Shown: positions 5,169 to 46,371 of the stretch, piece after piece
Layout: each line of letters begins with the position of its first letter
Numbering within the stretch: the stretch's first letter is position 1
DNA from: Tenericutes bacterium ADurb.Bin087
GTDB taxonomy: Bacteria; Bacillota_I; Bacilli_A; RFN20; CAG-826
Reading direction: 5' to 3'
Length of the DNA: 64,000 nt
NCBI GenBank assembly: GCA_002070905.1
Contig: MWEF01000002.1
Coordinates: 9,297-73,296, forward strand
Position numbers and translations under genes: made by a program
Notes under the pieces: model-generated
Seen by the model: the letters and a program-made list of their open reading frames with translations, nothing else
Databases searched by the model: none
What the model was told of the DNA's origin: nothing

Positions 5169-5297
5169 CTCCCACTTTCTCCCACTTTCTTTGACTACAT
5201 TATACATAAACGTGTTGCGGTTGTAAACAAAAAAAACGCAAAAAAAGAAAAAAGAAGAGTCACCCCTTCTTTTATGCTCATTCTATGAGAATATTAA

Positions 5298-8185: not shown

Positions 8186-8194
8186 AATTACTCC

Positions 8195-9445: not shown

Positions 9446-9510
9446 GAGCATATTATACATCAATATAATATAAATTGGTAAAATTATGACTATGGGACGA
9501 ATGGTTATAC

Positions 9511-10554: not shown

Positions 10555-10948
10555 ACCACGCCTCACCTGATTGTATTATTTATCAATTACTTAATATTAC
10601 CATTTGCTATTAAAATAAAAAAGTAGGTGGTTATTAAATGGTTATTAAGTGGTTATTAATTTTTATCGCTTAAAAAAATTTAACTACCAATAATCCTTTT
10701 CAATCTTTTAATTATAATCATTCAATCAACGAATGTTCTTGATAGTTACTATTTTCCCAAATATTTAATATTAGAACATGTCTATTAAGATTCTAAGGTT
10801 GTAGTTTACCTAATTGTTTAAATTTACATTATTTTGTGCAGCGAATATTGGATAACATGCGGTGCAAATTATCTATTTCAATAAAAAACCGCAAAAATAT
10901 TAAATTTATAAAATTGATGTAACGAATATATTCAGTTATTCCTAGTTT

Positions 10949-11659
10949 TCAGTCTCTTTTACTTATTTCGTACATTAGTATTGCGCCCGCAATAGCGACA
11001 TTAAGTGAATCAATATGCTGCATCGGAATTTTTACTCTGCAATCGGCAATTTTTAAGACATCTTTACTGACACCACGTGCTTCGTTACCTAGGACAAGCA
11101 CTAATTTAGAAGCTTTCACTTCCTCAATCGTAATCGCTTCTCCTAAAGTAGTAACAACAACTTGATATCCTTCATTTTTAAGTATCGTTAATTCTTTTAA
11201 TGAAGATTTTTTAATCGGTAATAAGAAATGCGCACCCTGACCACTATTTAGGACTTTTTCGTTATATGGATTAACACTTCCTTCACTAAGTAATACACCA
11301 CCAAAATCAAACGCTAAAGCAGTGCGAAGAATCGTGCCTAAATTACCTGGATCATTAACTTCATCTAAATACAATAAATGTTTACTTTTATCTATTAATA
11401 ATTTTGGTTTTTTAATCAGCGCAAAAGCCCCATCAGTGGTAACTTTGTCACTTAATTTCTTGGCTATTTCAGGGGTAATAAGTGTCATAGGAACGTCATA
11501 ACTAAGTTTTTCAACACTAAAAATTTCAATAATTAAATTAGCGCTTACCGCCATTTCAATCAGGTGTTTACCTTCAATTAGAAGTTCATCTTTTGGTTTT
11601 GCTTTTAAGGCCACTAGTGCTTTAATCTTTGGATTTTGCTTACTCGTTAATATATCCAT
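10949..11659 (-). CDS. TrmH/SpoU-family RNA 2'-O-methyltransferase (YsgA-like, next to pheS as in Bacillus)
   Basis: SpoU motifs: NLGTILRTALAFDFGGVLL, LVLGNEARGVS, KIPMQHIDSLNVAIAGAILMYE. Confidence 0.8.
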   Translation of the reverse strand: MDILTSKQNPKIKALVALKAKPKDELLIEGKHLIEMAVSANLIIEIFSVEKLSYDVPMTLITPEIAKKLSDKVTTDGAFALIKKPKLLIDKSKHLLYLDEVNDPGNLGTILRTALAFDFGGVLLSEGSVNPYNEKVLNSGQGAHFLLPIKKSSLKELTILKNEGYQVVVTTLGEAITIEEVKASKLVLVLGNEARGVSKDVLKIADCRVKIPMQHIDSLNVAIAGAILMYEISKRD

Positions 11660-12305
11660 AATGATGCTCCTTTAACATTTGATCTAAAAGTTTATAATTT
11701 GGTTCATATTTTTCTAACATTGTATAAAATTTACGACCATGACCATTTACAAAATAATGCACTAATTCATGAACGATTAAGGCATCAATAATGCGCGGGT
11801 GATAATGAATTAATTTCGTGTTAAAGGTTAGACTCATAGTCCGTTTACTATTACTGCCCCATCTAGTTTTCATATTTCGAACACGGACATTGTACTTAAC
11901 ATTTATATTCATTATGTCACTATATCTATTTACTGCTTTTTCTAAATAATTTAATAATGTCTTTTTTGTTAATGAGTAGAAGTGTTCAAGACTATTTGGC
12001 ATTGCTTTTAATTTATACTTTTCTTTAATAGCAACTAAACTTAATTCTTCCCCAAATATATACGTTTTGTCCGTGAAAGGAATCGTTTTTGTTGTTTTTT
12101 GTAAACGAATTAGACTCTTATAATTTTTAATAAATACTTCTTCTAATTTTGAGATTCTAGTCCCATAGGGAAGTGAGACATTAAATGTATTTTCTTGCGT
12201 TTCACATGGTCGAAAAATAATCGTCTTCATTCTTTTATAGGTAAGACTTAAATTATAGTTAACGACACCATTTTTAGTATTAACACTGATAATATGAGTA
12301 AACAT
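11640..12305 (-). CDS. M48-family metallohydrolase (YgjP/DUF45-like)
   Basis: C-terminal HELVHYFVNGHGRKFYTMLEKYEPNY (HExxH plus the downstream FW/Y pattern of the YgjP family). Confidence 0.7.
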   Translation of the reverse strand: MFTHIISVNTKNGVVNYNLSLTYKRMKTIIFRPCETQENTFNVSLPYGTRISKLEEVFIKNYKSLIRLQKTTKTIPFTDKTYIFGEELSLVAIKEKYKLKAMPNSLEHFYSLTKKTLLNYLEKAVNRYSDIMNINVKYNVRVRNMKTRWGSNSKRTMSLTFNTKLIHYHPRIIDALIVHELVHYFVNGHGRKFYTMLEKYEPNYKLLDQMLKEHHYGYINE

Positions 12306-22113: not shown

Positions 22114-25101
22114 ATGTCCTTTATCCCTTTGAATGTTTTTACCAATTACGCGCTCCTTCAAAGTGCTCTAACTTTGGATGACTATTTAAAAGAACTCAAA
22201 AAACGCAAAATAAAAGCCGCGGGTGTTAGTGATCCTGATACCCTTTTTAGTTACCCGCACTTCGCCACGAAAAGTAAAATATATGGCGTAAAAGCACTAT
22301 ATGGTGTACGCTTAAATTTTGACGATTCATCACTAGTTATTTATCCCGTAAATGAAGATGGTTATCGCGCACTTTTAACACTGATTGAACGTAAAAATCA
22401 GCGTGCACTCACACTCAAAGATTTAAAAGAAAATGCCACTAATTTAATTGTTATTGTTCCTACTTCTAACATTAATAAGCTAAACATTGAACACGCAAAT
22501 ATGCAGAAATATTTTTATGATATTGCATTAGCAACAAATACTTTATACATAGGTTTGGAACGTGAAAACACTGAATTAACTAGCTTTTTGCGCGAGTTTA
22601 GTGCTAAATTCAATTACGAACTCGTTGCATTCCCGCTTATTAAATATGTAAAAAGCGAAGACCATAAAACACTCTTAATGATAGAAGCGATACGGGATGG
22701 CAAAACGTTTTCAATCTATGATATTTCTAGTGGTCCTGATTATATTTCTAGTGATGATGAATTAAGCACTTATTACACTGAACGTGAATTAAAAAACACC
22801 CACAAAATTAGTGACCAAATATCCTTTAATTTAAGCGCTAAGCACGACCTAAATTTCCCGCTGCCTGGGATCTTTAATGCTGATCAAAAAATCGATGAAT
22901 TAACGACTAATGCCTTAAAAGAAAAGGGATTAACAAATGATAAAAGATATCGCGACCGTCTTGCGCATGAATTAAAAATCATTCGCCGCTTAGGCTATGT
23001 TAACTACTTCTTAATTGTGAGTGATTATGTAAATTTTGCGAAAAGAGAAGGCATTTTAGTCGGCTATGGTAGGGGTAGTGCACCAGGTTCATTAGTGAGC
23101 TATCTTTTAGGTATTACCCACGCTGATCCGATTGAGCATAACTTACTTTTCGAACGCTTTTTAAATCCAGAACGCGTGTCTCTACCAGATATTGATATTG
23201 ACTTTATGGATATTCGGCGTGGTGAAATTATTGACTATATTAAAGCAACATATGGGGAAGATAAAGTCGCCCATATTGTCACTTTTCAAACTAATGCGGC
23301 CAAAGCTTCATTACGAGATACAGGGAATATCTTTAATATTGATTCAAAGTTTATTAATCGCTTAAGCACTAGTTTAGGCACCACTAACTACTCCTTCCGT
23401 GATGCTTATCGTAATGTTAAAGCATTCCGTGACCTTGTTGATCGCGATACATATAACTTAGAAATTATCAAAAATGCCACAAAGCTTGAAGGGTTCCCGC
23501 GGCAAAGCGGACTCCACGCTGCGGGGATTATAATTGATGGTGAACCACTTGCGCACAGCTTACCAACCTTCATCAATAATGGCTTGCGCGTCACACAATA
23601 TGAAATGGGATTTTTAGAGGAACATGGTTTTTTAAAGGTCGATATCTTAGGCCTGTCAAACCTTACTTTTGTCCATAACATCATTACTTTAGTGCGAGAG
23701 AATCACGGTGTTAATCTTGATTTTTACAATTTAAAATTTGATGATCCGCGGATTTATAATGTGATTCGTCAAGGTCATACACTCGGCTTATTCCAACTTG
23801 AAAGCGGCGGGATGCGCAAAGCAATTGCCACCATTAAACCGAGTAATTTTAATGATATTAGTGCCCTCCTTGCGCTCTATCGTCCTGGACCAATGCAATA
23901 CATTGCTGAATACGCGATGCGTAAAGAAGGAAAAGCCGAAATTTCATATTTAAATGATGATTTAATTGATATTTTACAACCAACTTACGGCATTATGATT
24001 TATCAAGAACAAATTATGCAAATTGCGGCAACGATGGCGGGCTTTAGTCTTGGGCAAGCGGATATTTTACGGCGGGCAATTGGTCGTAAAGATGAAAAAA
24101 TAATTTTAGAGCAAAAAGATTCATTCTTTACTGGTGCTAAAAAACGCGGCTATTCCAGAGAAGATACTGAAAAAGTGTTCAATGATATTTTACGTTTTGC
24201 TGATTACGGTTTTAACAAATCGCACTCTGTCGTCTATGCGATGCTAACGACTGCGTTAGCGTATCTTAAAACATATTATCCGTATGAATTTTATCACGAA
24301 TTATTGCGTAGTTTAGTTAGTGATAATGTGAAATTTGCGCTTGCGCGTCAAGAATTAAAAGCCCTTAACATCACGATTAGTCGTCCTTGTGTCTTAAAGT
24401 CTACAACGGAGTTTATTAGAATTGATGACACCATTAACTTTCCACTTAGTGCAATCGTTGGGCTTAACCGTGAATCCGCTAATACGATAGTGCGCTTACG
24501 GGAACAAAAGATGTTTGCTAATGTGCAGGACTTCTTCTTCCGCGCCTATAAAGCGGGCGTCACTGGGGACGAATTTATGGCCCTGATTGAAGCAGGGGCC
24601 CTTGATACATTCAACACTAATCGGGCGTACTTAAAGGCAATGTTTAGTGCCTACTTACCAACTTTAGATATTGGTTTGTTTGATGATGAAAAAGCGCTTC
24701 ACGCTATTATCGTTGACGATGTTAAAGAAAGTGCTGATCGGCTTGAACTTGAAGTTAAACGCTTACGCTTCCCGCTCTCCGCAAATCCGCTTGATAACAT
24801 TAAACTTAAAGATGCTAAACGTGTTAGTCATATTTTAAAAGCAAAAGTCGGTTTAGTAAAAATGTATGGTGTCTTAAATTCATTACGGATTATAAAAACG
24901 AAAAAAGGTGATGAGATGGCTTTTGCCACCATTAGTGATTATGAAACAGAAATTACTGCTGTGTTCTTTACTCGTGAATTTAGTGCCTATCGCGAATTGT
25001 TATCACTTAATCACATCTATATTTTTAGTGGCCGTTTAGAGGAACGCGATGGTGACAAACAAATAGTAATTTCTAGTTTAGAAAGGTATGAAAATGAGTA
25101 A
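22114..25101 (+). CDS. dnaE: DNA polymerase III alpha subunit (DnaE-type) with a degenerate PHP domain
   Basis: 995 aa; polymerase core GRGSAPGSLVSYLLGITHADPIEHNLLFERFLNPERVSLPDIDIDF (catalytic DID present). The N-terminal PHP region lacks the HxH and other metal ligands (MSFIPLNVFTNYALLQSAL). Confidence 0.9.
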   Translation: MSFIPLNVFTNYALLQSALTLDDYLKELKKRKIKAAGVSDPDTLFSYPHFATKSKIYGVKALYGVRLNFDDSSLVIYPVNEDGYRALLTLIERKNQRALTLKDLKENATNLIVIVPTSNINKLNIEHANMQKYFYDIALATNTLYIGLERENTELTSFLREFSAKFNYELVAFPLIKYVKSEDHKTLLMIEAIRDGKTFSIYDISSGPDYISSDDELSTYYTERELKNTHKISDQISFNLSAKHDLNFPLPGIFNADQKIDELTTNALKEKGLTNDKRYRDRLAHELKIIRRLGYVNYFLIVSDYVNFAKREGILVGYGRGSAPGSLVSYLLGITHADPIEHNLLFERFLNPERVSLPDIDIDFMDIRRGEIIDYIKATYGEDKVAHIVTFQTNAAKASLRDTGNIFNIDSKFINRLSTSLGTTNYSFRDAYRNVKAFRDLVDRDTYNLEIIKNATKLEGFPRQSGLHAAGIIIDGEPLAHSLPTFINNGLRVTQYEMGFLEEHGFLKVDILGLSNLTFVHNIITLVRENHGVNLDFYNLKFDDPRIYNVIRQGHTLGLFQLESGGMRKAIATIKPSNFNDISALLALYRPGPMQYIAEYAMRKEGKAEISYLNDDLIDILQPTYGIMIYQEQIMQIAATMAGFSLGQADILRRAIGRKDEKIILEQKDSFFTGAKKRGYSREDTEKVFNDILRFADYGFNKSHSVVYAMLTTALAYLKTYYPYEFYHELLRSLVSDNVKFALARQELKALNITISRPCVLKSTTEFIRIDDTINFPLSAIVGLNRESANTIVRLREQKMFANVQDFFFRAYKAGVTGDEFMALIEAGALDTFNTNRAYLKAMFSAYLPTLDIGLFDDEKALHAIIVDDVKESADRLELEVKRLRFPLSANPLDNIKLKDAKRVSHILKAKVGLVKMYGVLNSLRIIKTKKGDEMAFATISDYETEITAVFFTREFSAYRELLSLNHIYIFSGRLEERDGDKQIVISSLERYENE

Positions 25102-34646: not shown

Positions 34647-34689
34647 TTACTACTTGCCTGTAAAGGCAATTACGTGTAAAATTAATTTT

Positions 34690-34905
34690 GGCAACGACAA
34701 AGACAAGAGGTTAATTGCACTACTTACAGAGACCTAGTGGCTGGTGCAAACTAGGAGTAATACTTAACCTTACCACTTTCGAGCCTATTGACGAAGAGTC
34801 AATCGTTAGTCGCGTTATGACTATGAGAGTGCATGGCAACATGAATTAAGGTGGTACCGCGCAAAAATAGCGTCCTTAAAGGGGCGTTTTTTATTTAAAA
34901 AAGGA
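34690..34905 (+). ncRNA. T-box riboswitch leader of thrS
   Basis: AATTAAGGTGGTACCGCGC lies at about 34847-34865, followed by a GC hairpin and TTTTTTATTT. An upstream candidate promoter is TTGCCT..TAAAAT. Confidence 0.55.
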
Positions 34906-34914: not shown

Positions 34915-36810
34915 ATGGAACTCAAATATAAAAATCAAATCGTTAAAGTAAATGAAGGAACGACTGGTTTTGATTTACTCAAAATCCTAAATGTTGAAGG
35001 GAAAGGTAATGTTTTAGTCTATAAACTAAATGGAGAGCTTTTTGATCTAGCGACATCACTACCAAATGGCGGTGACTTCAGTTTTGTGACAAAGGATGAT
35101 GCGGAAGCTTTTGCACTGCTAAACCATGATGCAGCACACCTCATGGCCCAAGCCATTTTAAGTATGTATCCAAAAGCTAAATTTGGGATTGGTCCCGATA
35201 TTAGTGAAGGCTTTTACTATGATATTGATTTTGGCGATGCAATCATTAATGATAGCGACTTAGCAGTTATTGAAGCACGCATGCTTGAACTCTCGAAAGC
35301 TGATTTTCGCGTGATGCGCCAAGTTGTCACTAAAGAAAAAGCACTAGAAATATTTGCAAATAATGAGTATAAAATCGAACTAATTAAAGAAATTAATGAA
35401 CGCATTACCATCTATTCGCAAGGTGACTTTGTTGATTTGTGCTATGGTCCGCATTTACCGAGTACACGTTATGTCCAACACTTTAAACTCTTAAGTTTAG
35501 CGGGTGCCTACTGGCGCGGTGATTCAAGTCGTAAACAATTAACACGTATTTATGGTGTTGCTTTCTTTAGTAAAGAGGCGCTTGATAAACATCTTGCTAA
35601 TCTTGAAGAAGCCAAAAAACGTGATCACCGTAAATTAGGACGCGAACTTGGGCTCTTTATGCTTAGTGAATATGGGCCAGGCTTCCCCTTTTGGCTCCCT
35701 AAGGGCATGAGGCTTTACCATGAACTTGAACACTGGTGGATTAAAAAACAACGCGAAGCGGGTTATGAATTTGTTAAAACACCACAAATTCTTAGTCGTG
35801 AGTTATGGGAAACAAGCGGTCACTGGCTCAATTACCGCGAAAATATGTATACGACACTCATTGATGACCGCGACTTTGCGATTAAACCAATGAATTGTCC
35901 TGGTTCGATTCTTATTTACAATAATGGTTTACATTCGTATAAAGATTTACCAATCCGCATGGCGGAACACGGTCACGTTCATCGTCATGAACCAAGTGGT
36001 TCACTAAATGGATTATTTAGAGTGCGGAGCTTCACGCAAGATGATGCCCACATCTACTGCCGTAAAGATCAATTACAAGGTGAAATTAAGCGACTGTTAA
36101 AACTATATGACGAAGTTTATAAAACATTTGATCTTAGTTACCATATTGAATTATCCACAAGACCCGAAAAGAAATTCATCGGCGATATTAAAACATGGAA
36201 CTTAAGTGAAAAAGCGCTCGCCAAAGCGTGTAAAGCAAGCGGGATTCCGTTTAAGATTAATGAAGGGGACGGTGCATTTTATGGGCCAAAACTTGATTTT
36301 AAGTTACGTGACAGCTTAGGGAGAATTTGGCAATGTGGTACGATTCAATTAGACATGAATTTACCCGAACGCTTCGATATTTCCTATATTGACGCTAATA
36401 ACCAAAAAGTACGGCCAATTATGCTCCACCGCGCTGTCTTTGGCTCAATTGAACGCTTTATTGGCATTTTAATTGAACATTACGCTGGGGCTTTCCCGCT
36501 TTGGCTAGCGCCGACACAAATTGCAATCTTACCTGTAAATAACGATGCACATTTAAAACACGCTAATAGTGTCGTGCGTAAACTTGAAAAAGAGGGGTTT
36601 AGGGTTGAACTTGACGCTAGTAATGAAAAACTTGGTTATCGGTTACGCACGAGCCAAGTAAATAAGATTCCTTACACTCTCGTTATTGGTGATAAAGAAC
36701 AAAATGATAACTTAGTTACTTATCGCAAATTTGGGGCCAAAGACCAAATTACTGTTCCCTATCGTGAATTTATCGCGCTAATTAAACGTGAAATTCGTGA
36801 CAAAGCATAA
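34915..36810 (+). CDS. thrS: threonyl-tRNA synthetase
   Basis: 631 aa with TGS, editing and class II catalytic domains (FRVRSFTQDDAHIYC) plus an anticodon-binding domain. Confidence 0.95.
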   Translation: MELKYKNQIVKVNEGTTGFDLLKILNVEGKGNVLVYKLNGELFDLATSLPNGGDFSFVTKDDAEAFALLNHDAAHLMAQAILSMYPKAKFGIGPDISEGFYYDIDFGDAIINDSDLAVIEARMLELSKADFRVMRQVVTKEKALEIFANNEYKIELIKEINERITIYSQGDFVDLCYGPHLPSTRYVQHFKLLSLAGAYWRGDSSRKQLTRIYGVAFFSKEALDKHLANLEEAKKRDHRKLGRELGLFMLSEYGPGFPFWLPKGMRLYHELEHWWIKKQREAGYEFVKTPQILSRELWETSGHWLNYRENMYTTLIDDRDFAIKPMNCPGSILIYNNGLHSYKDLPIRMAEHGHVHRHEPSGSLNGLFRVRSFTQDDAHIYCRKDQLQGEIKRLLKLYDEVYKTFDLSYHIELSTRPEKKFIGDIKTWNLSEKALAKACKASGIPFKINEGDGAFYGPKLDFKLRDSLGRIWQCGTIQLDMNLPERFDISYIDANNQKVRPIMLHRAVFGSIERFIGILIEHYAGAFPLWLAPTQIAILPVNNDAHLKHANSVVRKLEKEGFRVELDASNEKLGYRLRTSQVNKIPYTLVIGDKEQNDNLVTYRKFGAKDQITVPYREFIALIKREIRDKA

Positions 36811-36868
36811 GTCATTACAAACTTCTACTTCCATGCGATAATATGTGTGGAAAAAGGAGGAAAATGAT

Positions 36869-37480
36869 ATGGCTTTTACATTAAAACCACTTCCATATGC
36901 TTATGATGCACTTGAACCTTACATTGATGCACTAACAATGGAAATTCATCACACAAAACACCACGGAGCATACGTTAATAACTTAAATGCCGCGTTAGCG
37001 AAAGAATCAGGTTTTGAAAATTGGACTTTAGAAAAAATATTAACAAACTTAGAAAAATTACCCGAAAGTATTCGCACGGCCGTGCGCAATAATGGTGGTG
37101 GTGTTTTTAACCACGACCTCTTCTGGACTTTGCTTAAAGTCAATAATGGCAAGGGTCCTGAAGGCAAACTTAAAACAGCGTTAGTTGAAACTTTTGGTAG
37201 TGTTGAAGCATTTAAAGATGCCTTTGCCGCTGCGGCTAAAACCCGCTTTGGTTCCGGCTGGGCGTGGCTTATTGTCACTAAAGATAAAAAACTTAAAGTA
37301 TTAAGCACCGCAAATCAAGACACACCACTACTTGAAGGTCGTCCGATCTTAGCGCTTGACGTGTGGGAACATGCTTATTACCTTAAATATCAAAACCGTC
37401 GCCCCGAATACGTTGATGCATTCTTTAACGTTGTAAATTGGGATGAAGTCGCGCGTTTATACCAAAATGCGTTAAATTAA
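36869..37480 (+). CDS. sodA: Mn/Fe superoxide dismutase
   Basis: [32 protein letters not shown]...DVWEHAYYL. The start is assigned at MAFTL, with RBS AAAGGAGGA. Confidence 0.9.
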
Positions 37481-37489
37481 CAATTAAAG

Positions 37490-37652
37490 TTGACAGATTA
37501 TCATATTAGTGATATCTTTATAAGGTCTAAAAGTGGAAAGTAGAAGCGCCCGCTTCTCACCAGATTTACGAGGTAAATTGGTTGATGCTACGATTATATC
37601 GTCTTATTGCGGGTGTCTACTGACGCCCGCTTTTATTAACTACAAGGAGGAA
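37490..37652 (+). promoter_or_regulatory. infC-rpmI-rplT promoter and L20-type transcription attenuator leader
   Basis: TTGACA (37490-37495), a 17-bp spacer and TATCTT. The leader has an upstream CGCCCGC element (37547-37553) that can pair alternatively with the left arm of the downstream terminator hairpin GCGGGTG..CGCCCGC (37609-37630, followed by TTTTATT). Confidence 0.5.
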
Positions 37653-38204
37653 ATGCTTATTTACAACCAAAACCGAGAACGGCCCGAACGCAATACTGAT
37701 TTAGTCAATGAAAACATTCGTTTTCCCGAAGTCTTAGTCATTGGCCCAAATGGCGAACAACTAGGCGTCATGAAAACACGCGCCGCAATTGAACTTGCAG
37801 CAAATCAATATGAACTAGATTTATACTGTGTTAACCCGAATGGCAAACCACCCGTTTGCAAAATGCTCAATTATTCTAAATACCGCTTTGAACAACAAAA
37901 GCGCGCTAAAGAACAAAAACGGAAACAAAAGATTGTCGAATTAAAAGAAATCAGAATGTCACCCGTAATTGATGTGCACGATCAAGAAACAAAAGGGCGA
38001 ATGGCTCGTCGTTTCTTAGAAGATGGTAATAAAGTTAAGGTGACAATCCGCTATCGTGGACGCCAAATGGCGCACATTGAAGTTGGTGAAAAAATATTAG
38101 AAGGCTTTGTTGCATCATTAGAGGAATTTGCTGTCGTTGAAAGAAAGCCATTACTCGAAGGTCGTAACCTAAGTGTTATCTTAGCGAGTAAAATTAAGAA
38201 ATAG
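37653..38204 (+). CDS. infC: translation initiation factor IF-3
   Basis: Conserved IF-3 core (...IRFPEVLVIGPNGEQLGVM...ELDLYCVNPNGKPPVCKMLNYSKYRFE...). The in-frame ATG at 37653 is only 2 nt after RBS AAGGAGG. The ATT at 37659 has 8-nt spacing and is the likely AUU start. The track ORF begins at 37533, inside the leader. Confidence 0.85.
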   Translation: MLIYNQNRERPERNTDLVNENIRFPEVLVIGPNGEQLGVMKTRAAIELAANQYELDLYCVNPNGKPPVCKMLNYSKYRFEQQKRAKEQKRKQKIVELKEIRMSPVIDVHDQETKGRMARRFLEDGNKVKVTIRYRGRQMAHIEVGEKILEGFVASLEEFAVVERKPLLEGRNLSVILASKIKK

Positions 38205-38215
38205 GAGGAAGTTTC

Positions 38216-38410
38216 ATGCCAAAAATGAAAAGTAAAAGTGCTTTAACCAAGCGCGTTAAAGTTACTAAATCAGGCAAATTAATGCGTAAAGCAGCGTATA
38301 CATCGCATTTAGCCCCCCGCAAAACAACAAAACAAAAACGACAATTACGGAAAGTGCGTTTAGTGCATAAGAGTGACGCTAAACGTATTAAGTATTTAAT
38401 TCAAAACTAG
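38216..38410 (+). CDS. rpmI: 50S ribosomal protein L35
   Basis: 64 aa, MPKMKSKSALTKRVKVTKSGKLMRK, a typical L35. Confidence 0.95.
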   Translation: MPKMKSKSALTKRVKVTKSGKLMRKAAYTSHLAPRKTTKQKRQLRKVRLVHKSDAKRIKYLIQN

Positions 38411-38422
38411 GAGGAAGTAATA

Positions 38423-38782
38423 ATGGCAAGAGTAAAAAGTTCACCGGTCACACGTGCCCGTCGTAAAAAAGTTTTAAAACAAGCCAAAGGTTACTTTGGT
38501 TCCAAAAGCTTACTCTTTAAAACTGCTAAAGAGCAAGTCATGCACTCCTTACGTTATGCTTATATCGATCGTCGTCGGATTAAACGTGATTATCGTAAAT
38601 TATGGATTAAACGGATTAACGCCGGCTGCAGAATGTGTGAAATTAGTTATAGCCAATTCATGCACGGCTTAAAATTAGCGAATGTTGATATCAATCGTAA
38701 AATGTTAAGTGAATTAGCAATTAATGATTTTGAAACATTTAAAGGTTTAACCGAAACAGCGAAAAAAGCACTCGCAAAATAA
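38423..38782 (+). CDS. rplT: 50S ribosomal protein L20
   Basis: 119 aa, [26 protein letters not shown], a typical L20. Confidence 0.95.
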
Positions 38783-38804
38783 AGTAAATATTTCTTTCTT
38801 AACA

Positions 38805-38840
38805 AAACTGGGAGTAGATTTATGTTTACTCCCTTTTTTA
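38805..38840. terminator. bidirectional rho-independent terminator (rplT and convergent PHP-gene operon)
   Basis: GGGAGTAgatttatgttTACTCCC is followed by TTTTTTA on the + strand. An A/T-rich run on the other side serves the minus-strand operon. Confidence 0.6.
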
Positions 38841-38908
38841 ATTTCTCCACTTTTAATAATTATTTTAAGGACAAACAGTAATTGAAATTTTTAATTAAAT
38901 CTTCTTAT

Positions 38909-41041
38909 TTAGTACTTCATGATAGGCCGTAAGCGTTTATTAGGTTCATCAATTTCAAATTCGCGAGTAAAATTTTTACCTATTTTCATTTTTTCAAAGG
39001 TGAAACCACGATTATTCATATCTAACATCATCTCGTAAAGTTTTAAATATAACATATCAGCTGTGTATTTAATCGATGGTTTTAGTTTTAAGTCATCAAT
39101 TCTTTTCTTTAATTGCTCTTTACTTAATAATAACGGTTCTTCTTTAGCTAACCCTAAACTTGTATAAAAAATCATATTAAAGTAATCAACATAAAACGCT
39201 AAAGGATGATAAAGTTTAAAGAAGGCAAATAGTAAACTGATTCTCTGATGTTCACTTCGTTCAGCGTCTTTGTAACTTTCTTTAAGGTGCGGTATACCAA
39301 GATTCGTTACTTCATCAGCACCTGAAACTATATCCATTAGTCTTTGTTCATTAATATCAATGTTATTAATGTTGACACCTGTAATTTGCATTAAATTACG
39401 TAATTTATATAAATAAATATCCGCAATTATATTAAATTCATACAGTGATTTTCGTAAATCATTATGATCAAAGTGCGTCATTTTCCATACATACTTATCA
39501 TTATTAAGATAATATTGCAGTGGAGTAAATTCATGCCACTTACGACCTTCAGGCAAGATAAAGATAGAAGATATATGCGGCATAGTTATCCTTTTAGTTT
39601 GCGCAGTGTAAAGCGCAATTTTTCTCACTTCTTCATCACTAACTGTTTTGACGTCTATTTCCTTCCACCCTAAAGTCTTTTTCGTCATATTAATTGCGGT
39701 GCTAATAGGAAAGGGTGTTATTTTCCCGCCTTTAACAACATTATCTTCGCCAAAATTTTCACGAAGATATTGAAGCGCTTTAAGGTGACCTTCTTCTTCA
39801 ACTTTTAAATAAAAGGCAGAGTCATCCGCATTATATGGAATAAAACCATTCACTGGACATAAAGGGTTAACGTTACTAATTCCTAAAAGATAGGCAAGAA
39901 AAGAACTTCCGTTTTTCTTATATCCGATAAATAAATAGCCATATTTCTTCATTAACTTCGCTATTTGATAATATATTAGTAAAACTGATGAATAACCTTT
40001 ATTTATCACATCATCTAATTCTTCCTTCATCCGTTTTTTTACTTCTCTTGGAAGTAAATCACCATATTTCTCTCGTGCTTTATTAAAACAGATTTCACTT
40101 AAAGTTTTATTAGCATTTTTAATTATTGGATAAGATGTTAATAAAGCATACGGCATAATTTGCGAAATCATATCGTTAATAAGGTTAGTATTTTTAATAA
40201 CTATTTCGTTAGCGAGTTCCTCCTCTAAAAACGAAAAACTTGCAAGCATTTCCTTTGTACTTCTAAAATGTTGATCTGGATTTTCAAAATATTCTAATTC
40301 GTTCCGTTCTTTTGGAGTTAAGGGATGGCGTCTTGTATAGGGAATTTGCGAATCAATTAAGACATCGCGACTTATTTTATGAACTTTATCAAGGTAATGA
40401 ACATCGCCTGTAGCAACTACTAGTTTTCCTAATCTTTTAGCACTATTAATAATTCTAACGATAGTGTCCTTTATAGATTTTTCATTATATTTTTCTATAT
40501 ACATATTTATTAAGTGCGAGTAGTTACTAGGTGGTTGAATTTCTAAATAATCATAAAATGAGCATATTTTTTCAAACACTTCTTCATCTTTAATCTGACT
40601 AGCGTAATCAAAGACTTCACCATTAAAACACGCTGAACCAATTAAAAGATTAGTGCGATATTTATTAATAACACTTTTCGGTAGTATCGCTTCTCCGTCA
40701 TGTAAATGCTTAGTGTTCGCTAGTGTTAATAATTCATAAAGTTCATTAATTCCTTGTTTATTCTTCGCTAATGCGATAGTGTGATAAATGGGTTCAAACT
40801 TTTTGTTGAATTTAGCGGAGAAAGTATCATCCCACATTAATAATTCAACTCCATAAATAATTTTAATGTCGTATTTTTGACCTGCTTCGTGCGCTGAATA
40901 AAATGACTGTACACAATTATGGTCAGTTATAGCAATGGCAATGTGTTCCATTTCTTTAGCTCTCTTACAATATTCGTCAATTGTTGTTACACCGTCTTGC
41001 TCTGACATATTTGTGTGTAAATGTAATTCTATTCTTTCCAT
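38909..41041 (-). CDS. PHP-domain protein fused to a catalytically degenerate PolC-like polymerase core (pseudo-polymerase; candidate nuclease effector)
   Basis: The N-terminal PHP motifs are intact (HLHTNMS, DG, ITDHN, GVE, CFNGE, VVATGDVHYL). Downstream, clear similarity to the PolC palm/fingers, recalled from memory of B. subtilis PolC (NGSSFLAYLLGISNVNPL, KRITMPHISSIFILPEG, THFDHNDL, FFKLYHPLAFYVDYF, NRGFTFEKM). The PDIDLNF catalytic aspartates and the KAHAAAY motif are replaced. Confidence 0.6.
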   Translation of the reverse strand: MERIELHLHTNMSEQDGVTTIDEYCKRAKEMEHIAIAITDHNCVQSFYSAHEAGQKYDIKIIYGVELLMWDDTFSAKFNKKFEPIYHTIALAKNKQGINELYELLTLANTKHLHDGEAILPKSVINKYRTNLLIGSACFNGEVFDYASQIKDEEVFEKICSFYDYLEIQPPSNYSHLINMYIEKYNEKSIKDTIVRIINSAKRLGKLVVATGDVHYLDKVHKISRDVLIDSQIPYTRRHPLTPKERNELEYFENPDQHFRSTKEMLASFSFLEEELANEIVIKNTNLINDMISQIMPYALLTSYPIIKNANKTLSEICFNKAREKYGDLLPREVKKRMKEELDDVINKGYSSVLLIYYQIAKLMKKYGYLFIGYKKNGSSFLAYLLGISNVNPLCPVNGFIPYNADDSAFYLKVEEEGHLKALQYLRENFGEDNVVKGGKITPFPISTAINMTKKTLGWKEIDVKTVSDEEVRKIALYTAQTKRITMPHISSIFILPEGRKWHEFTPLQYYLNNDKYVWKMTHFDHNDLRKSLYEFNIIADIYLYKLRNLMQITGVNINNIDINEQRLMDIVSGADEVTNLGIPHLKESYKDAERSEHQRISLLFAFFKLYHPLAFYVDYFNMIFYTSLGLAKEEPLLLSKEQLKKRIDDLKLKPSIKYTADMLYLKLYEMMLDMNNRGFTFEKMKIGKNFTREFEIDEPNKRLRPIMKY

Positions 41042-41095
41042 ATCTAAATTTCCTCTCTCTTTAAATTAATATTGTTTAAATGATTTAATTTATAA

Positions 41096-41551
41096 TTAAC
41101 GGTTTTCATTATTATTCCTACCTAAAATTTTTGCTAATAAAGAAAACACGAGTACTCCTAAACCGATGAATCCGCTGATTTGTAGTGCAGAATTAGGGTC
41201 AAAATAAGTGCCGGCGGGTTCCTCAATTTTCCAGCACGGATAAGAATCGTAGGTTGGTGGTACTACATCTAGCACGTATTCTCCAGTAACTATATGTACG
41301 TAACCGTTCCGAAATTTAACCCAAGGGTCTCTACCTCTTAATAATTCACAATCAATATCATCGCTTTCAAGCCGATAAAGCAGGTGTCTAGCGTGGCTCA
41401 AGCAATAATACATAGCAGTATTAAAATCTGAAAAAGTAATGCCTATAGCATCTTCTAATCTTTGAAATTCACTTTCACCACTATGAGCTTCTTCAAATTC
41501 TTCACGAATAAAACAAGGGCGCCCGTCATAACTAAAACCAGTGAAGCCCAT
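41096..41551 (-). CDS. small tail-anchored membrane protein of unknown function
   Basis: About 151 aa from the ATG with RBS AGGAGA; the track ORF starts one codon earlier at GTG (41552-41554). It has a soluble Cys/aromatic-rich N-terminal domain and a single C-terminal TM helix (ISGFIGLGVLVFSLLAKILG). Confidence 0.5.
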   Translation of the reverse strand: MGFTGFSYDGRPCFIREEFEEAHSGESEFQRLEDAIGITFSDFNTAMYYCLSHARHLLYRLESDDIDCELLRGRDPWVKFRNGYVHIVTGEYVLDVVPPTYDSYPCWKIEEPAGTYFDPNSALQISGFIGLGVLVFSLLAKILGRNNNENR

Positions 41552-41654
41552 CACGCGTAATCTCCTAATAAAAATGCCATTTATGAATCCTCCTATTTGT
41601 TACAATTTAGTTATAACATGTTAATTAGGACATAAAACGACATTAATGATTAAT

Positions 41655-42353
41655 TTATTTTTTATTACAATTAAAAATACAAATATTGACTTTTTCTTCT
41701 AACTTTGTTCCTTTTATGCGCGTTAATTTGAATAGTTTATTCATTTCATCTATCCATTCATCATGTGAAAGTGATTTATAGTCTTCAGTATTAAATTCGT
41801 ATCCATTTTCAAAAAGTAAATACACTAATTTGGCTTTATAACCTTTTTTTAGTAAAAAATCTAAAGCAATTATGCGATTCGCTAATTGATAACCTGCACC
41901 AGTCCAGTTACTTACTGACCGATTAATTTCGTATTCTTTTTGAACGGTTGTAATAACTTTAGTATTGTTTGCTATTGTATCAGGATCTTTCCAATCCGCT
42001 CCTGCTCCTTTTAATTCTCCAAGATGCGCTTTTGCTTCTACTAAAATGATGGTGCCGTCTTTCGAAATTCCAACCGCATCCCAATTTATCCCTCCTTTTC
42101 CGCAAGCCCAGTAAGTAGTCCATTCTTTATTAATCCCTGGGATAAATTCAAAATTTAGTATTTCTTTATCTTCTGGCCCATTAAAAGTAAAATCAAGCCA
42201 ATTAATTTCACTATCAACTTTAGCGGATTCAGCACTCGCCTCATTTAATTCATTACGATGCCAGCCAAGCATTCTTAGTAATTGATACTTTGATCCATAA
42301 CCAAACGCTAATTTATCACAAATATTTTTTTGCATTTCATTTATAACCTCCAC
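41655..42353 (-). CDS. hypothetical protein with a PD-(D/E)xK nuclease-like motif
   Basis: 232 aa; WDAVGISKDGTIILVEAKAH fits the D-x(n)-E-x-K restriction-endonuclease-fold signature. It has no other recognisable domain and is AT-rich. Confidence 0.45.
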   Translation of the reverse strand: MEVINEMQKNICDKLAFGYGSKYQLLRMLGWHRNELNEASAESAKVDSEINWLDFTFNGPEDKEILNFEFIPGINKEWTTYWACGKGGINWDAVGISKDGTIILVEAKAHLGELKGAGADWKDPDTIANNTKVITTVQKEYEINRSVSNWTGAGYQLANRIIALDFLLKKGYKAKLVYLLFENGYEFNTEDYKSLSHDEWIDEMNKLFKLTRIKGTKLEEKVNICIFNCNKK

Positions 42354-42394
42354 TACTTAAATAATTTATAAGAAACTCGAGATATAGAAGGTAA

Positions 42395-43111
42395 TCATTT
42401 TATATCTTTTTTAAAAATAAAAACTTTAATATCCCAATCCTTGATTAACTGATTAACATTAGGGTGCTCTTCTTTATTACGAAAATGTTCCGCTGCTGTT
42501 GAATCTTCGGGGATTAAAATCACTTTTCTAATCCTCGTGCAGGGGTTAATCTCCAATTTCTTAATATGTAAATCTTTTAATAGTTGTTTCTTCTTCTGGA
42601 TTAGTGACTCGTAATATGTTTGGATTTGGAGCGCACACTTAAGAAGGGTTTCAACGCTTTTATATTCCCCATCCTTTTTTACGCCTTTAACCTCAATTAA
42701 GTATAGTTCATCCTTCTTTTCGTCATACGATAATAAATCAACATCCACTCCAGTATTAGGAGAGATATTTAACTCACATTCAAACGGTTTTCCTAAATTA
42801 TCTGGTGACTCTTCAAACAAATCTTCCCCAAAAGAGTTATCATCATACCATCTGCGACATAATGCACGCTCAGTGCCTGGTTCCGCTTTACTTTTTCTCT
42901 TACGCATTTTAAATTCTTCCCTCACTTCGGTATAAGGGACAATATCATCTTTATGTTCCAAAATATATTCTGCAATAACTTCAGTATAAAATTCAGTTCC
43001 CTTTTTCGTCTTACCTGTATAGTTATTGAAATCCTTGGTATAAAACCCAACTTTAGGTAAAGCATTTTTAACCATTTCAATAATTTCTTCTTTACTATAT
43101 TTTTTAGGCAT
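42395..43111 (-). CDS. hypothetical protein with a PD-(D/E)xK nuclease-like motif
   Basis: 238 aa; VDVDLLSYDEKKDELYLIEVKGVK has the D...E-x-K pattern. Its ATG overlaps the regulator stop (TAATG), which indicates translational coupling. Confidence 0.4.
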   Translation of the reverse strand: MPKKYSKEEIIEMVKNALPKVGFYTKDFNNYTGKTKKGTEFYTEVIAEYILEHKDDIVPYTEVREEFKMRKRKSKAEPGTERALCRRWYDDNSFGEDLFEESPDNLGKPFECELNISPNTGVDVDLLSYDEKKDELYLIEVKGVKKDGEYKSVETLLKCALQIQTYYESLIQKKKQLLKDLHIKKLEINPCTRIRKVILIPEDSTAAEHFRNKEEHPNVNQLIKDWDIKVFIFKKDIK

Positions 43112-44001
43112 TAGCTATTCCCCCTCTTTATACTTATTATTTGGTTATTCAAGTATTTTAAGTATCGTTCTATAAAATCTTTATCTAAAAATGTGTACTT
43201 CTTTGTGCTAATTCTAAAAAGTGGATAGTATAATTCGTTTTCACTACTACTAGTGACGGTGTAAGTTAACTCTTCTTCATCTTTAGTACCTTTACCCTCA
43301 AAATATTTATCGAAAGTTAATAATGTTTCTTGGTCGTTACATTTAACACGTAATGTTGTTTCTTTTCCGTCTTTAATTCCATACATCGATGACTTTTTTA
43401 GAATTGTCTGTTCGATATTATCTTTTGGCATGAAAGCTTCTAATTGTTTAATATCACGCATAAACCGCACATCATATTTACGTAATTCATCATTATATGT
43501 GCCAAATAAGTAATAAGTGTGATTTGTAAGCACAATTTTATAGGGCGCAACTTTTAATGGGTTATCAAAATCACGATACATGAAACTTATTACTTTTTGG
43601 ACTTTGATAGCCTTTATAATTTGTTCTAAATTATCTAACACATCATTATCGATGTAATTATCTCCAACAATTGAATCCGTAATAACATAATTTGGTAATT
43701 CAGACAGAACTTTTTCAATACGTTCATTACTTCGCATCGCAATAGACATAGCAAGTACGATATTTTCGGGCATCGCAAAGCCTTTATCTAAAGGTGTCCG
43801 TAATCTGTAACCACCATAACGCCCTAATTTAGTCTCAATATCGAGTTCTATGATTGTATTTAAGTCTTCTAGATAACGACGAGCTTGACGATCACTCACT
43901 TCAAGATAATTTGCAATTTCTTTGATAGTGACCCACTTCGTGCGATTATGTAGTTGATTTAGGTACAAGAGCACTTTTAGTTCCTGACTAATTTTTGACA
44001 T
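43111..44001 (-). CDS. HTH + WYL-domain transcriptional regulator (BrxR/CapW-like)
   Basis: An N-terminal DeoR-type HTH (VTIKEIANYLEVSDRQARRYLEDL) is followed by GRYGGYRLR. The WYL domain shows ISFMYRDFDNPLKVAPYKIVLTNHTYYLFGTYNDELRKYDVRFMRDI. A C-terminal extension may be WCX-like. It is the first gene of the 5-gene operon. Confidence 0.7.
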   Translation of the reverse strand: MSKISQELKVLLYLNQLHNRTKWVTIKEIANYLEVSDRQARRYLEDLNTIIELDIETKLGRYGGYRLRTPLDKGFAMPENIVLAMSIAMRSNERIEKVLSELPNYVITDSIVGDNYIDNDVLDNLEQIIKAIKVQKVISFMYRDFDNPLKVAPYKIVLTNHTYYLFGTYNDELRKYDVRFMRDIKQLEAFMPKDNIEQTILKKSSMYGIKDGKETTLRVKCNDQETLLTFDKYFEGKGTKDEEELTYTVTSSSENELYYPLFRISTKKYTFLDKDFIERYLKYLNNQIISIKRGNS

Positions 44002-44063
44002 ATAAATCCTCCATAGCTTTAGGATAACAAACTATATAGGACATATAAAGGCATATTAAAAAA

Positions 44064-45245
44064 TTAAAATAATTCATCCTCACTATTATTTAGAGAAATA
44101 TCAACTTTTTTCGTATCACTAATTGCTTCACTAATAAGTGATTCGTAATCAAACTTGCTTTCAAAACGGAGTGCATCTTCTAATTTTGGGCTAGTGACAG
44201 AATTTGTAACAGGGAAAATCGTACAACAATCTTCATAAGGTAAAATGGAAATGGGATACGTTTGAATGCCCTTTGCAATCTTAATAATTTCATTTTTATC
44301 AACTGTCGCTAGTGGGCGAATAATTGGATAATTTGTTACTTCATTAATCACCACAAGTGATTCAAGTGTTTGACTAGAAACTTGGCCAAGTGAATCACCA
44401 GTGACAAGTACTTTATAGCCATGGCGCTTAGCAATAATGGTGCTGATGCGCAGCATCATGCGGCGCATTAAAGTAATCGCATACCCGCCTGTCGAGTGTT
44501 CATAAATCGCTAATTGGAGGTTAGTGAAAGGCACAACATAAAGCCTAATACACGGTTGATAGTTATTAAGTTTAGCAACAATGTTTTCAATTTTCTTTAA
44601 CACTTCTTCACTTGTATAAGGAGGAGCAGCAAAGTGGATAGCCGCAATTTTAATCCCGCGCCTAATCATTAAATAGGCGGCGACTGGCGAATCAATCCCG
44701 CCACTAAGGAGCACTAAGCCTTTTCCCGCGGCGCCAAGCGGATAACCGCCTAAACCATCATAACGTTTACCAACAACTAAAATTCGATTTGTATCAATCT
44801 CTAGTCGTAGTGGCAATTCGGGATCATGGACATCCACTTTAATCTCGGCATTTTTCAGAATGTGACTAGCAATACTACGGTTAACTTCATCACTGCGTAA
44901 CGGAAATAATTTATCCTTTCGTTTAGTAATTACTTTAAACGTTTTTGGTTTAAGTTCAAGCACAAGGCTAAGCACAAATTGTTTAACCTTTTCTAAATCT
45001 AACGGGAATTCAACAACTTCACTAATGGCATGGATTCCGCTGACATTTTGCAGCCGTTTTATAATTTCTTGCAAATTATTTTCTTGAATATTTTTTATAT
45101 AAATATGGTCATGTCTTGTTTCAATATGGACTTTAAAAGGCGCGCTAACTTCTTTAATGTTTTGCGTTAGTTGCCGGATAAAATCTCGTCTATTTTTGCC
45201 TTTAGTGTATAGTTCACCAAAGTGAATCATTACCATTTTACTCAC
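44064..45245 (-). CDS. thiI: tRNA 4-thiouridine(8) synthase ThiI
   Basis: 393 aa with a THUMP domain and a PP-loop (LLSGGIDSPVAAYLM). Confidence 0.9.
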   Translation of the reverse strand: MSKMVMIHFGELYTKGKNRRDFIRQLTQNIKEVSAPFKVHIETRHDHIYIKNIQENNLQEIIKRLQNVSGIHAISEVVEFPLDLEKVKQFVLSLVLELKPKTFKVITKRKDKLFPLRSDEVNRSIASHILKNAEIKVDVHDPELPLRLEIDTNRILVVGKRYDGLGGYPLGAAGKGLVLLSGGIDSPVAAYLMIRRGIKIAAIHFAAPPYTSEEVLKKIENIVAKLNNYQPCIRLYVVPFTNLQLAIYEHSTGGYAITLMRRMMLRISTIIAKRHGYKVLVTGDSLGQVSSQTLESLVVINEVTNYPIIRPLATVDKNEIIKIAKGIQTYPISILPYEDCCTIFPVTNSVTSPKLEDALRFESKFDYESLISEAISDTKKVDISLNNSEDELF

Positions 45246-46371
45246 GGCTATACTCCTTAATAATTTCGATTAATGCCTTACAGAATATGTCAACTTCTTC
45301 AAGGGTATTTTCCATTCCAAAACTGACACGGATTGAATTACTAGCGCGCTCTTCATCATGAGATATGGCATACACTGATTGACTCATAGTATGTAACTTA
45401 GCGCTACAGGAACTTGTCGTACCAACATAAATCCCCCGATTTTCTAAAGCATTAAGGACAATTGATGCCTTAATCGTCTTAAGTGAAAAATTAAAGATGT
45501 ATGGATTACTTTGTCCGAGAGAATTAATAACAAATAAATCTTTATATTGAGCAATAAAATTGTGAAGTTTAAGTTTTAAAGGATAAACATGATTAAAGTG
45601 GTTATCTATATTCCCTTTAGCGATTCGCACTGTTTTTGCTAACACAATATTAGCGGGCGCATTATGCGTTCCAGGTCGAATCCCTTCTTCTTGTCCCCCG
45701 CCATACACTAGTGGTTTTGGCTGTAAATTATTGCGGAGAATCAAAGCACCACTCCCTTTTAAACCACCGATTTTATGAGCGGAAAATGAATAAGCATCCG
45801 CAGCGTTAGGATGATATTCAAGTTTCCCCATCGCTTGCGTGACATCGCTATGGAAAATAACTTTAGGATATGGTTTTAAGTAGTCCCTAATTTTCCCCAA
45901 ATCAATAACATCACCTACTTCATTATTAACAACCATCACCGATACGAGTATAGTTTTATCATTTAGTAACGATTTAAAAACATCAAAATCAAAACCACCT
46001 TGGAAGCGAATCGGTACCTTGTGAATGATGGCCCCACGCTCTTGTTGTAAATACGCACAAGCTTCCCGGACGCTAGGGTGTTCGTAATCACTAATGATTA
46101 TTTCATTGCCTCTATTTTTATATGTTTCATATAAACCAATAATGGCAATATTATTAGCTTCTGTTGCCCCGCTAGTGAAAATAACTTTACCATCACGAAA
46201 TTTAAGCATTCTTAAAAGTTCTTCGCGTGCTTTATCTTGTAATCTTGCTACTTCACGGGCAAAAGTATGCATTCCACTAGGATTTGCATAATATTTATCA
46301 AGAATCTCATTATATGTTCTTAAAACTTCTGGATGAATTTTTGTTGTACTAGCGTTATCAAAATAAATCAT
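45238..46371 (-). CDS. cysteine desulfurase (class V aminotransferase, NifS/IscS/NifZ-like)
   Basis: 377 aa; FSAHKIGGLKGSGAL contains the PLP lysine, and FTSGATEANN is present. It is paired with thiI, as in Bacillus nifZ-thiI. Confidence 0.85.
   Translation of the reverse strand: MIYFDNASTTKIHPEVLRTYNEILDKYYANPSGMHTFAREVARLQDKAREELLRMLKFRDGKVIFTSGATEANNIAIIGLYETYKNRGNEIIISDYEHPSVREACAYLQQERGAIIHKVPIRFQGGFDFDVFKSLLNDKTILVSVMVVNNEVGDVIDLGKIRDYLKPYPKVIFHSDVTQAMGKLEYHPNAADAYSFSAHKIGGLKGSGALILRNNLQPKPLVYGGGQEEGIRPGTHNAPANIVLAKTVRIAKGNIDNHFNHVYPLKLKLHNFIAQYKDLFVINSLGQSNPYIFNFSLKTIKASIVLNALENRGIYVGTTSSCSAKLHTMSQSVYAISHDEERASNSIRVSFGMENTLEEVDIFCKALIEIIKEYSRE

Follow-up and report, generated by a model that had tools for sequence, protein, structure and literature searches.

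A 64,000-nucleotide (nt) stretch of DNA from Tenericutes bacterium ADurb.Bin087, referred to here in its entirety as the window, encodes a 710-amino-acid (aa) protein that derives from PolC, the main replicative DNA polymerase of Gram-positive bacteria, and that can be regarded as a new member of the PolC lineage, dead as a polymerase, in a candidate, uncatalogued, WYL-controlled conflict system. Its open reading frame (ORF), with the stop codon, occupies 38909..41041 on the minus strand and is the last in a unit of five genes headed by a regulator with a WYL domain. The protein is a C-family polymerase homologue that, judging from its residues, is unable to polymerise. Kept are the PolC fold (the PHP domain, a remnant of the palm, the thumb and part of the fingers) and a complete ligand set for a trinuclear metal site in the PHP domain. 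An earlier reading of the same DNA, made from the sequence alone and called the sequence-only reading below, had proposed a PolC-type scaffold repurposed to carry an active PHP nuclease.

The PolC scaffold and its two active sites

There is evidence from Pfam, NCBIfam, the PDB and an AlphaFold2 (AF2) model in support of descent from PolC. Pfam places a PHP domain (PF02811) at residues 5-169 with 90.5 bits (1.9e-25; gathering threshold 26.4) and a DNA_pol3_alpha match that covers only positions 1-162 of the 260 in that model. Two PolC equivalog models rank first in NCBIfam, with 436 and 400 bits. These scores are under half of either cut-off (873 and 1043 bits), placing the protein outside standard PolC. 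In a phmmer search against the PDB, the best match is PolC of Geobacillus kaustophilus (3f2b, E=8e-99), aligned in three blocks, with chain residues 502-566 and 723-857 passed over. The AF2 model, built from an alignment with 72 homologues, has a predicted local distance difference test (pLDDT) score of 89.5 and a predicted template modelling score of 0.87, with pLDDT below 50 only at residues 397-399, which are the joint of the first deletion. Foldseek superposes this model on PolC structures 3f2b, 3f2c and 9qrl with TMq 0.83-0.87. The protein is thus clearly homologous to PolC in sequence and in fold; the E-values are on the scale of whole databases and the fold match is confident, so the resemblance is not due to chance. 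The kinship with the PolC palm and fingers that had been read from sequence motifs is borne out.

Several parts of PolC are missing. The protein has no Pfam match to the exonuclease (PF00929), the OB domain (PF01336), the fingers or HHH_6 (PF14579), in agreement with the earlier claim that the exonuclease, OB and helix-hairpin-helix (HhH)/clamp regions are absent. Residues 416-619 of the PolC sequence P0163 have no counterpart, meaning that the DEDD exonuclease insertion in the PHP domain is absent, and the C-terminus stops short of the HhH/clamp-binding region. What is present can be laid out from the N-terminus, all on the minus strand. The PHP domain (aa 1-290; 40172..41041), delimited with Pfam and two alignments, A1 (10 sequences) and A2 (72 sequences), carries nine metal ligands without the DEDD insertion. 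It is followed by the N-terminal helical part of the palm (aa 291-396; 39854..40171), which runs up to GSSFLAYLLGISNVNPL and is well conserved with PolC in the PDB match and in A1. The dead palm core and thumb (aa 397-585; 39287..39853), from which the Zn finger is deleted, were delimited with the PDB match, both alignments and direct read-out of residues. The remnant of the fingers and a C-terminal helical/beta region (aa 586-710; 38909..39286) complete the protein according to the PDB match and A1. The C-terminal two thirds of the protein are basic, with isoelectric points (pI) of 8.9 and, for the last region, 9.3.

The two active sites were compared by means of the same alignments and read-out. 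All nine PHP metal ligands are present (H7, H9, D16, H41, E66, H87, C138, D213 and H215), as the sequence-only reading had held from its motif set. They form the pattern HHDHEHCDH, which falls within H-H-D-H-E-H-C/H-D/N-H (PMC12926913, PMC3666897) and is the one by which PHP domains are classed as “active” (PMC12926913). The polymerase site has been taken apart. Where PolC has PDIDLNV, the protein reads SA-FYLKV, with a gap in the column of the first catalytic Asp and Y411 in that of the second; the third Asp, in K(L/M)DILGH of PolC, is replaced by N537 in EFN537IIAD. HPGG has become H489-ISS, and FPKAH has become YKD592AE594. Deletions have removed a Zn-finger module of ~45 aa and ~105-115 aa of the fingers, which is the part that binds deoxynucleoside triphosphates (dNTPs) and holds the HGT.., RDD, VRKGKG and FPKAH motifs. 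Because the three catalytic Asp residues, the Zn finger and the dNTP-binding fingers are all gone, the protein is not expected to polymerise. The catalytic Asp and KAH positions had been listed as replaced, correctly, and they are not conserved under any alignment used here; the dismantling is more thorough than was stated.

The window encodes an ordinary C-family polymerase as well. As had been remarked, dnaE (22114..25101, plus strand) shows LPDIDIDF and a PHP region that lacks the HxH, DH and E ligands. At 995 aa it is a short form, and we take it to resemble DnaE3, a type known from descriptions in Tenericutes and Bacilli. A tblastn search of the window found no other PolC-like gene.

Is the gene a functional one? 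The protein is deposited as OQC11362.1 from the metagenome-assembled genome (MAG) “Tenericutes bacterium ADurb.Bin087”, and further records are labelled Bacilli or Bacillota. Its cluster at 90% identity holds 26 sequences, the full-length members of which fall into three allele groups, all of 710 aa, differing from one another at 47-51 of the 710 residues (~7%) without a single indel. The ratio of nonsynonymous to synonymous substitution rates (dN/dS) in pairwise comparisons is 0.19-0.22 for the whole gene, 0.16 for the PHP region (aa 1-290), 0.10-0.18 for aa 291-396, 0.33-0.54 for the dead palm (aa 397-585) and 0.27-0.41 for the C-terminus (aa 586-710). Flanking housekeeping genes, where dS exceeds 0.1, have values of 0.045-0.18. 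The gene is therefore under purifying selection and encodes a functional protein rather than a relic, since dN/dS is ~0.2 and the frames are intact. A PolC scaffold can thus be maintained by selection after its polymerase function has been lost.

A five-gene unit and its sister operons

The five genes lie in the order WYL regulator, p238, p232, p152 and the 710-aa gene, with a G+C content of 0.31-0.33 against 0.37-0.40 in the flanks. The unit is found in the same place, between thiI and rplT, in each of the three lineages seen. A G+C-rich, terminator-like hairpin (38810..38833, plus strand) separates the convergent rplT and 710-aa genes. That the operon would be accessory and regulator-led had been anticipated: the first gene (43111..44001, minus strand) encodes a 296-aa protein with a helix-turn-helix (HTH) domain, a WYL domain and a conserved C-terminal domain, an architecture like that of BrxR and CapW (Pfam WYL 1.5e-7, HTH_11 5e-7; PADLOC WYL 2e-15). 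It is preceded by a ribosome-binding site, GGAGG, at 44008-44012.

Two promoters are predicted on the minus strand, P1 for the regulator, p238 and p232, and P2 for p152 and the 710-aa gene. They were recognised through motif searches and a 31-nt repeat (D1), from which a shared box was traced. P1 (44022..44055) consists of GCC-N3-TATATGTCCTA (44037-44047) followed by TGTTATCC (44022-44029), and P2 (41611..41645) of GTC-N3-TTTATGTCCTA (41626-41636) followed by an extended -10-like element, TGTTATAA (41611-41618). The TTTATGTCCTA box stands 6-7 nt upstream of the extended -10-like TGnTAT, at the -35 position, and there is no -35 hexamer. A box at the -35 position also suits an activator, as at PafBC-type promoters. 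Across the sister operons described below, the consensus is (G/T)CC-N3-TTTATGTCCTA-N6/7-TGnTAT, with two promoters per operon (three in locus L015). The box is presumably the binding site of the WYL regulator.

The three genes between the regulator and the 710-aa gene, all on the minus strand, encode proteins without a family in PADLOC or the PHROGs. p238 (42395..43111), whose start overlaps the stop of the WYL gene, has a D..EVK motif by eye and a weak NOV_C match (E=0.018). It evolves fast, with 74% identity between lineages and a dN/dS of ~0.5, and it has one homologue, 32% identical, at the same position in L015. p232 (41655..42353) belongs to a widespread uncharacterised family and has a D..EAK motif by eye and a weak DUF7829 match (E=0.006). 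These eye-read motifs and weak Pfam matches make a PD-(D/E)xK nature possible for both proteins. The p232 family has at least 214 homologues in several phyla, with one member in the WYL operon of L033 and solitary copies elsewhere. For example, homologues 35-52% identical to p232 stand alone in unrelated neighbourhoods in Ruminococcaceae and Bacteroidales (L029-L032), so the family is not confined to WYL operons. p152 (41096..41554) is the first gene of the P2 unit and lies directly upstream of the 710-aa gene; its true start is probably the ATG at 41551. It has 42 homologue clusters with 53-89% identity, in which C14, H87 and C107 are invariant, and it ends in a hydrophobic helix. No fold in the PDB matches its AF2 model (pLDDT 85), and a scan of viral contigs with p152 found nothing. 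Sequence searches of the PDB with p152, p232 and p238 gave nothing useful.

To gather sister loci, the regulator alignment was used as a probe alongside p152 and p232, and the genes of these loci were mapped by BLAST and Pfam. They come from MAGs of Erysipelotrichaceae and Bacillales and from one prophage. All sister operons are led by regulators 60-72% identical to that of the window. The regulator of L001 is 71% identical, with HTH and C-terminal domains that are almost invariant and a variable WYL domain. The box, an operator shared by the window and 12 sister loci, is missing among the sister loci only from L033; it stands at the same two positions in L001 (3222 and 5114) and occurs as variants in L007 and L015-L021.

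The gene content of these operons varies. In L001-L005, the WYL gene is followed by p306, p188, p85 and a PolC-like protein of 893 aa (a mini-PolC). L007 has p306, a 463-aa fusion of a PolC palm fragment with a p188 domain, proteins of 65 and 98 aa, and a mini-PolC of 741 aa. L015-L017 and L028 have the WYL gene, a nuclease-like gene, p188, p85 and a 496-aa protein made of an N-terminal extension, a palm remnant and fingers, without a PHP domain. In L019 and L020, the WYL and nuclease-like genes are followed by a p152 homologue (68-69%), a 467-aa palm-fragment/p188 fusion, p85 and a small protein that carries the N-terminal extension (with HHH_6 added in L020). L022 and L024 have the WYL gene, a nuclease-like gene, a p152 homologue and a fusion of 465 or 453 aa, and L026 has only the WYL gene, a REase-ARP/PDDEXK_13 protein, a 92-aa protein and a p152 homologue. 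L033 has the WYL gene, a p232 homologue, the C-terminal domain of p188 and p85, with no PolC-derived gene. The regulator, the box and a nuclease-like first module are thus the constants of the family. A second unit with a p188 domain, p85 or both is found in all sister loci but L026, and the window has neither of the two. The variable terminal module is the PolC-derived gene: it is a mini-PolC with an intact active site in L001, a PHP-less protein in L015-L017 and L028, a dead palm fusion in L019, L020, L022 and L024, and missing in L026 and L033. Intact mini-PolC, PHP-less form, palm fragment and dead PHP form make up a natural series under one regulator and one operator, and hence an experimental system in which to ask what the PHP domain does in PolC-lineage proteins and whether replisome-derived parts serve in phage defence.

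Some of these modules deserve a fuller description. The fusions of 453-467 aa (L007 458-1849; L019 12169-13572; L020 5676-7079; L022 6408-7805; L024 10448-11809) begin with the PolC palm fragment (DNA_pol3_alpha, E=8e-9), in which the catalytic strand GPRFDISV can be read by eye. Their p188 domain has the motifs GPFFYI, YGNYPRGRV and D(A/S)HYTH and no match in Pfam, PADLOC or PHROG; p306, p188 and p85 likewise have no PADLOC or PHROGs family. In a profile-profile comparison of the nuclease-like genes, p306 was linked with p284 only (98.8%), and p238 and p232 were unlinked, so their putative PD-(D/E)xK nature was not confirmed. The PHP-less 496-aa proteins (L015 13527-15017; L016 12712-14202; L017 8025-9512; L028 8057-9547) have an N-terminal extension of ~50 aa and PolC fingers (PF17657, E=2e-6), a reduction opposite to that of the window protein. 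The small proteins of L020 (7296-7940) and L019 (13789-14256) carry the same N-terminal extension as the mini-PolCs, and the former joins it to a PolC-type HHH_6 domain (E=4.5e-8), another piece of PolC that has a gene to itself.

Only four protein clusters are closer to the 710-aa protein than ordinary PolCs are. These are mini-PolCs of 741-896 aa with 39-42% identity (P0002-P0005), and they lie in the sister WYL operons L001-L008, where, as in the window, they occupy the last-gene position under the same operator box and a 71% identical regulator. Like the 710-aa protein, they lack the exonuclease, OB and HhH parts. Unlike it, they keep the Zn finger, PDIDLNV, HPGG, K(M/I)DILG and FPK(A/G)H, and they look polymerase-competent on these residues. 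P0002 and P0003 have an extra N-terminal extension of ~50 aa, and the partner genes of the mini-PolC operons (p306, p188 and p85) differ from p238, p232 and p152 of the window. Scanning one genome per species with the 710-aa protein found no close relative; the regulator alignment, used in the same kind of scan, recovered only seven sister loci from 185,579 species representatives. Nor did an exhaustive HMMER search of 1.84 billion representatives find a further dead family; the matches were ordinary PolCs with at most 39% identity, except for two partial matches. The gene is therefore not a ubiquitous core replication paralogue, given that the regulator-led loci lie in other taxa and that these scans yielded no close relative. 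Among the forms found, a complete PHP site and a dead polymerase occur together in the window version only.

Defence and mobile genes lie around the sister operons. L001 lies near an Eco57I-type methyltransferase, DUF5655 and a ParB-methylase, L007 near a type I restriction-modification (R-M) system, L006 near IS110 and XRE genes, L024 near an integrase and L026 near an IS605-type OrfB, with the REase-ARP/PDDEXK_13 gene inside the operon itself. Further neighbours include Schlafen/AlbA_2, Fic and AAA_14/DUF4143 genes. In L028, an IMG/VR contig (IMGVR_UViG_3300049640_001019), tail genes and a holin of a prophage immediately precede the sister operon (310-9547); at least part of the family is thus carried by phages. 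The stretch just after the tail genes and holin is a usual site for the accessory “moron” genes of prophages.

Synonymous divergence around the window unit is strongly mosaic when 34915-46371 is compared with the two other lineages, L009 and L012. Values of dS are ~1.1 for thrS and sodA against both lineages and 0.7-0.8 for thiI and iscS against L009 only. For the five-gene unit, dS against L009 is only 0.13-0.41, which suggests that the island has recombined or has recently been exchanged between backgrounds that had diverged. Elsewhere, Rfam recognises a T-box leader before thrS (34685-34880) and an L20 leader before infC (37532-37644). The listed infC ORF (37533..38204) therefore starts too early; in related loci the annotated protein has 183 aa. 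At 10001-12000, G+C falls to its minimum in the window (0.30) over a 236-aa and a 221-aa ORF on the minus strand and part of another of 351 aa; this may be another acquired segment.

Possible functions of the unit

What might a polymerase-dead PolC do in such a unit? The preferred reading, which is tentative, is that the five genes form an inducible DNA-conflict system, most likely directed against phages. Like CapW, BrxR and PafBC, the WYL regulator would sense single-stranded DNA (ssDNA) or DNA damage, and it would then switch on P1 and P2; such induction would be likely whether the WYL protein acts as a repressor or as an activator. The basic remnants of palm, thumb and fingers would dock the 710-aa protein onto primer-template or replication intermediates, and the PHP site would trim or dephosphorylate 3′ ends, as a 3′-5′ exonuclease or a 3′-phosphoesterase, in cooperation with a membrane-anchored p152 and the nuclease-like p238 and p232. 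Docking at and processing of 3′ ends may be the most economical account, because the thumb and the basic palm and finger remnants (pI ~9) have been kept. An active PHP nuclease as effector, the proposal of the sequence-only reading, is plausible on the ligand set. A broader claim, that the WYL/TTTATGTCCTA operons are an undescribed inducible anti-phage family in which pieces of PolC have been recruited repeatedly as a targeting, sensing or decoy module, from the complete mini-PolC to the dead PHP form, is possible and on balance doubtful. If true, the C family would gain, in the window protein, its first “pseudo-polymerase” with a role in immunity.

A number of observations weigh against the preferred reading. 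PHP ligands are retained in at least 90% of A2, that is, in PolC-lineage proteins generally, so their retention in the 710-aa protein is not special. A natural allele, P0125, carries D213N, the same Asn that is found in Geobacillus PolC, and P0003, the closest relative with an intact active site, carries H215Y. The PHP domain of Geobacillus PolC, with eight of the nine ligands and Asn at position 8, binds Zn, Mn and Mn and has undetectable exonuclease activity (PMC3666897); conservation of the ligands is therefore no proof of PHP activity, the site being nearly identical. The PHP domain, or the whole PolC-derived gene, is missing from some sister operons, which means that whatever function the system has in common cannot be PHP catalysis. 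Of the earlier interpretation, the PolC-derived pseudo-polymerase, the complete ligand set and the regulator-led operon all stand, and the nuclease and effector roles are putative. No model in PADLOC-DB 2.0 matches the four non-regulator genes, the WYL regulator being the only one matched, and the regulator has no detectable sequence similarity to the solved BrxR or CapW structures; PDB searches with it, as a single sequence or as a profile (A3), matched only AtxA-type HTH proteins. Finally, the unit sits between the core genes thiI and rplT in all three of the lineages seen in the species group.

The same facts make a serious rival of the possibility that the protein is a non-catalytic scaffold, sensor or decoy, a DNA- or protein-binding subunit in which the PHP metal site is structural: Geobacillus PolC binds metals without detectable exonuclease (PMC3666897), D213N and H215Y are tolerated, and the PHP domain is dispensable in sister operons. 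As a scaffold it could serve to bring either p152 or the nuclease-like proteins onto replication intermediates, and as a decoy it could mimic host PolC, such that phage factors that target the replisome bind it and trigger the system. The variation of the PolC-derived module across sister operons is typical of a recognition or adaptor part, and ImuB is a precedent for a dead-polymerase accessory subunit (PMC12926913). However, purifying selection is strongest on the PHP region (dN/dS 0.16, against 0.33-0.54 on the dead palm), and all nine ligands have been kept despite ~60% divergence from the nearest relatives; this alternative is judged less probable than the preferred reading, though it deserves real weight. 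A role in DNA repair is a weaker rival, and a rather improbable one. Here the unit would be a damage-inducible cassette, the WYL protein a PafBC- or DriD-like activator that responds to ssDNA with the box replacing the -35 element, and the PHP domain would clean blocked 3′ ends as that of PolX does. The position of the box before an extended -10 suits activation as well as repression, PolX PHP has 3′-5′ exonuclease and apurinic/apyrimidinic-endonuclease activities (PMC12926913), and the unit is fixed between core genes in the three lineages seen. A conflict system is nonetheless favoured by the fast modular turnover of genes, the R-M, IS and prophage neighbours, the low G+C, the patchy distribution (7 loci among the 185,579 species representatives) and the fast evolution of p238.

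Two further explanations can be set aside more firmly. Two large internal deletions and the loss of every catalytic residue, when the relatives keep these residues, would suit a decaying mini-PolC relic with no function of its own. This is very unlikely, as the 710-codon frame is intact in three lineages that differ at 47-51 residues with no indels, each pairwise comparison gives a dN/dS of 0.2, the AF2 model is compact and of high confidence, and the P2 box and the partner gene p152 are conserved; a pseudogene was rejected on the substitution ratios and the intact frames. Equally, the overall PolC fold could be that of a DNA polymerase that still works through a non-canonical active site, but with the three Asp columns, HPGG, KAH, the Zn finger and ~110 aa of fingers lost, the chance of this is close to nil.

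Comparison with known systems

A literature search found no report that joins a PHP domain, WYL and defence, or a PolC-like protein and a defence system. In C-family survey papers searched by keyword, inactive homologues are mentioned for the Y and X families only. The sequence-only reading had suggested a comparison with Ppl, a single-gene defence system (Gao et al. 2020) that shares a PHP domain and a probable association with defence. The comparison was negative: no PADLOC hidden Markov model matches the 710-aa protein, which has no ATPase part, and membership was rejected. The best PHP-ATPase relative in NCBIfam, TrlF, covers only residues 3-124 (E=1e-7).

The closest likeness is to PolC itself (G. 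kaustophilus 3F2B/3F2C; Enterococcus 9QPC), with which the protein shares the fold, the PHP ligand pattern and the order PHP-palm-thumb-fingers. It differs in length (710 aa here versus ~1,440 in PolC) and in lacking the N-terminal domains, OB, the DEDD insertion, the Zn finger, the Asp triad, HPGG/KAH, the central fingers and the HhH/clamp C-terminus. Non-canonical PolX and PolX-like proteins follow the same logic of losing the polymerase and retaining the PHP domain; PolX relatives without polymerase activity are reported to retain a PHP 3′-5′ exonuclease (PMC12926913). PolX-like proteins belong to family X, have another genomic context and have a reported exonuclease, whereas the 710-aa protein belongs to family C and its exonuclease activity is putative. 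ImuB, a Y-family protein of the ImuA-ImuB-DnaE2 cassette, is likewise a dead polymerase homologue under selection in an accessory operon, which in its case is damage-inducible. Its fold is unrelated, it has no enzymatic domain and it is regulated by LexA; moreover, the active partner polymerase of ImuB is encoded alongside it, whereas the window operon has no such gene.

As for regulation, WYL repressors of the BrxR/CapW architecture sense ssDNA, which releases repression, and control defence systems (PMC11662680, PMC9122601). The window unit differs from BREX, CBASS and the other systems under such control in that its regulated genes match no known defence family and in having two boxed promoters per unit. 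It shares with them a ~295-aa HTH-WYL regulator that is encoded first, a boxed promoter of the autoregulated type (predicted here) and co-location with defence and mobile genes. To our knowledge, BrxR-family regulators are only rarely found in Gram-positive bacteria; the conserved box and the 296-aa WYL protein offer a compact, testable regulatory switch from that group.

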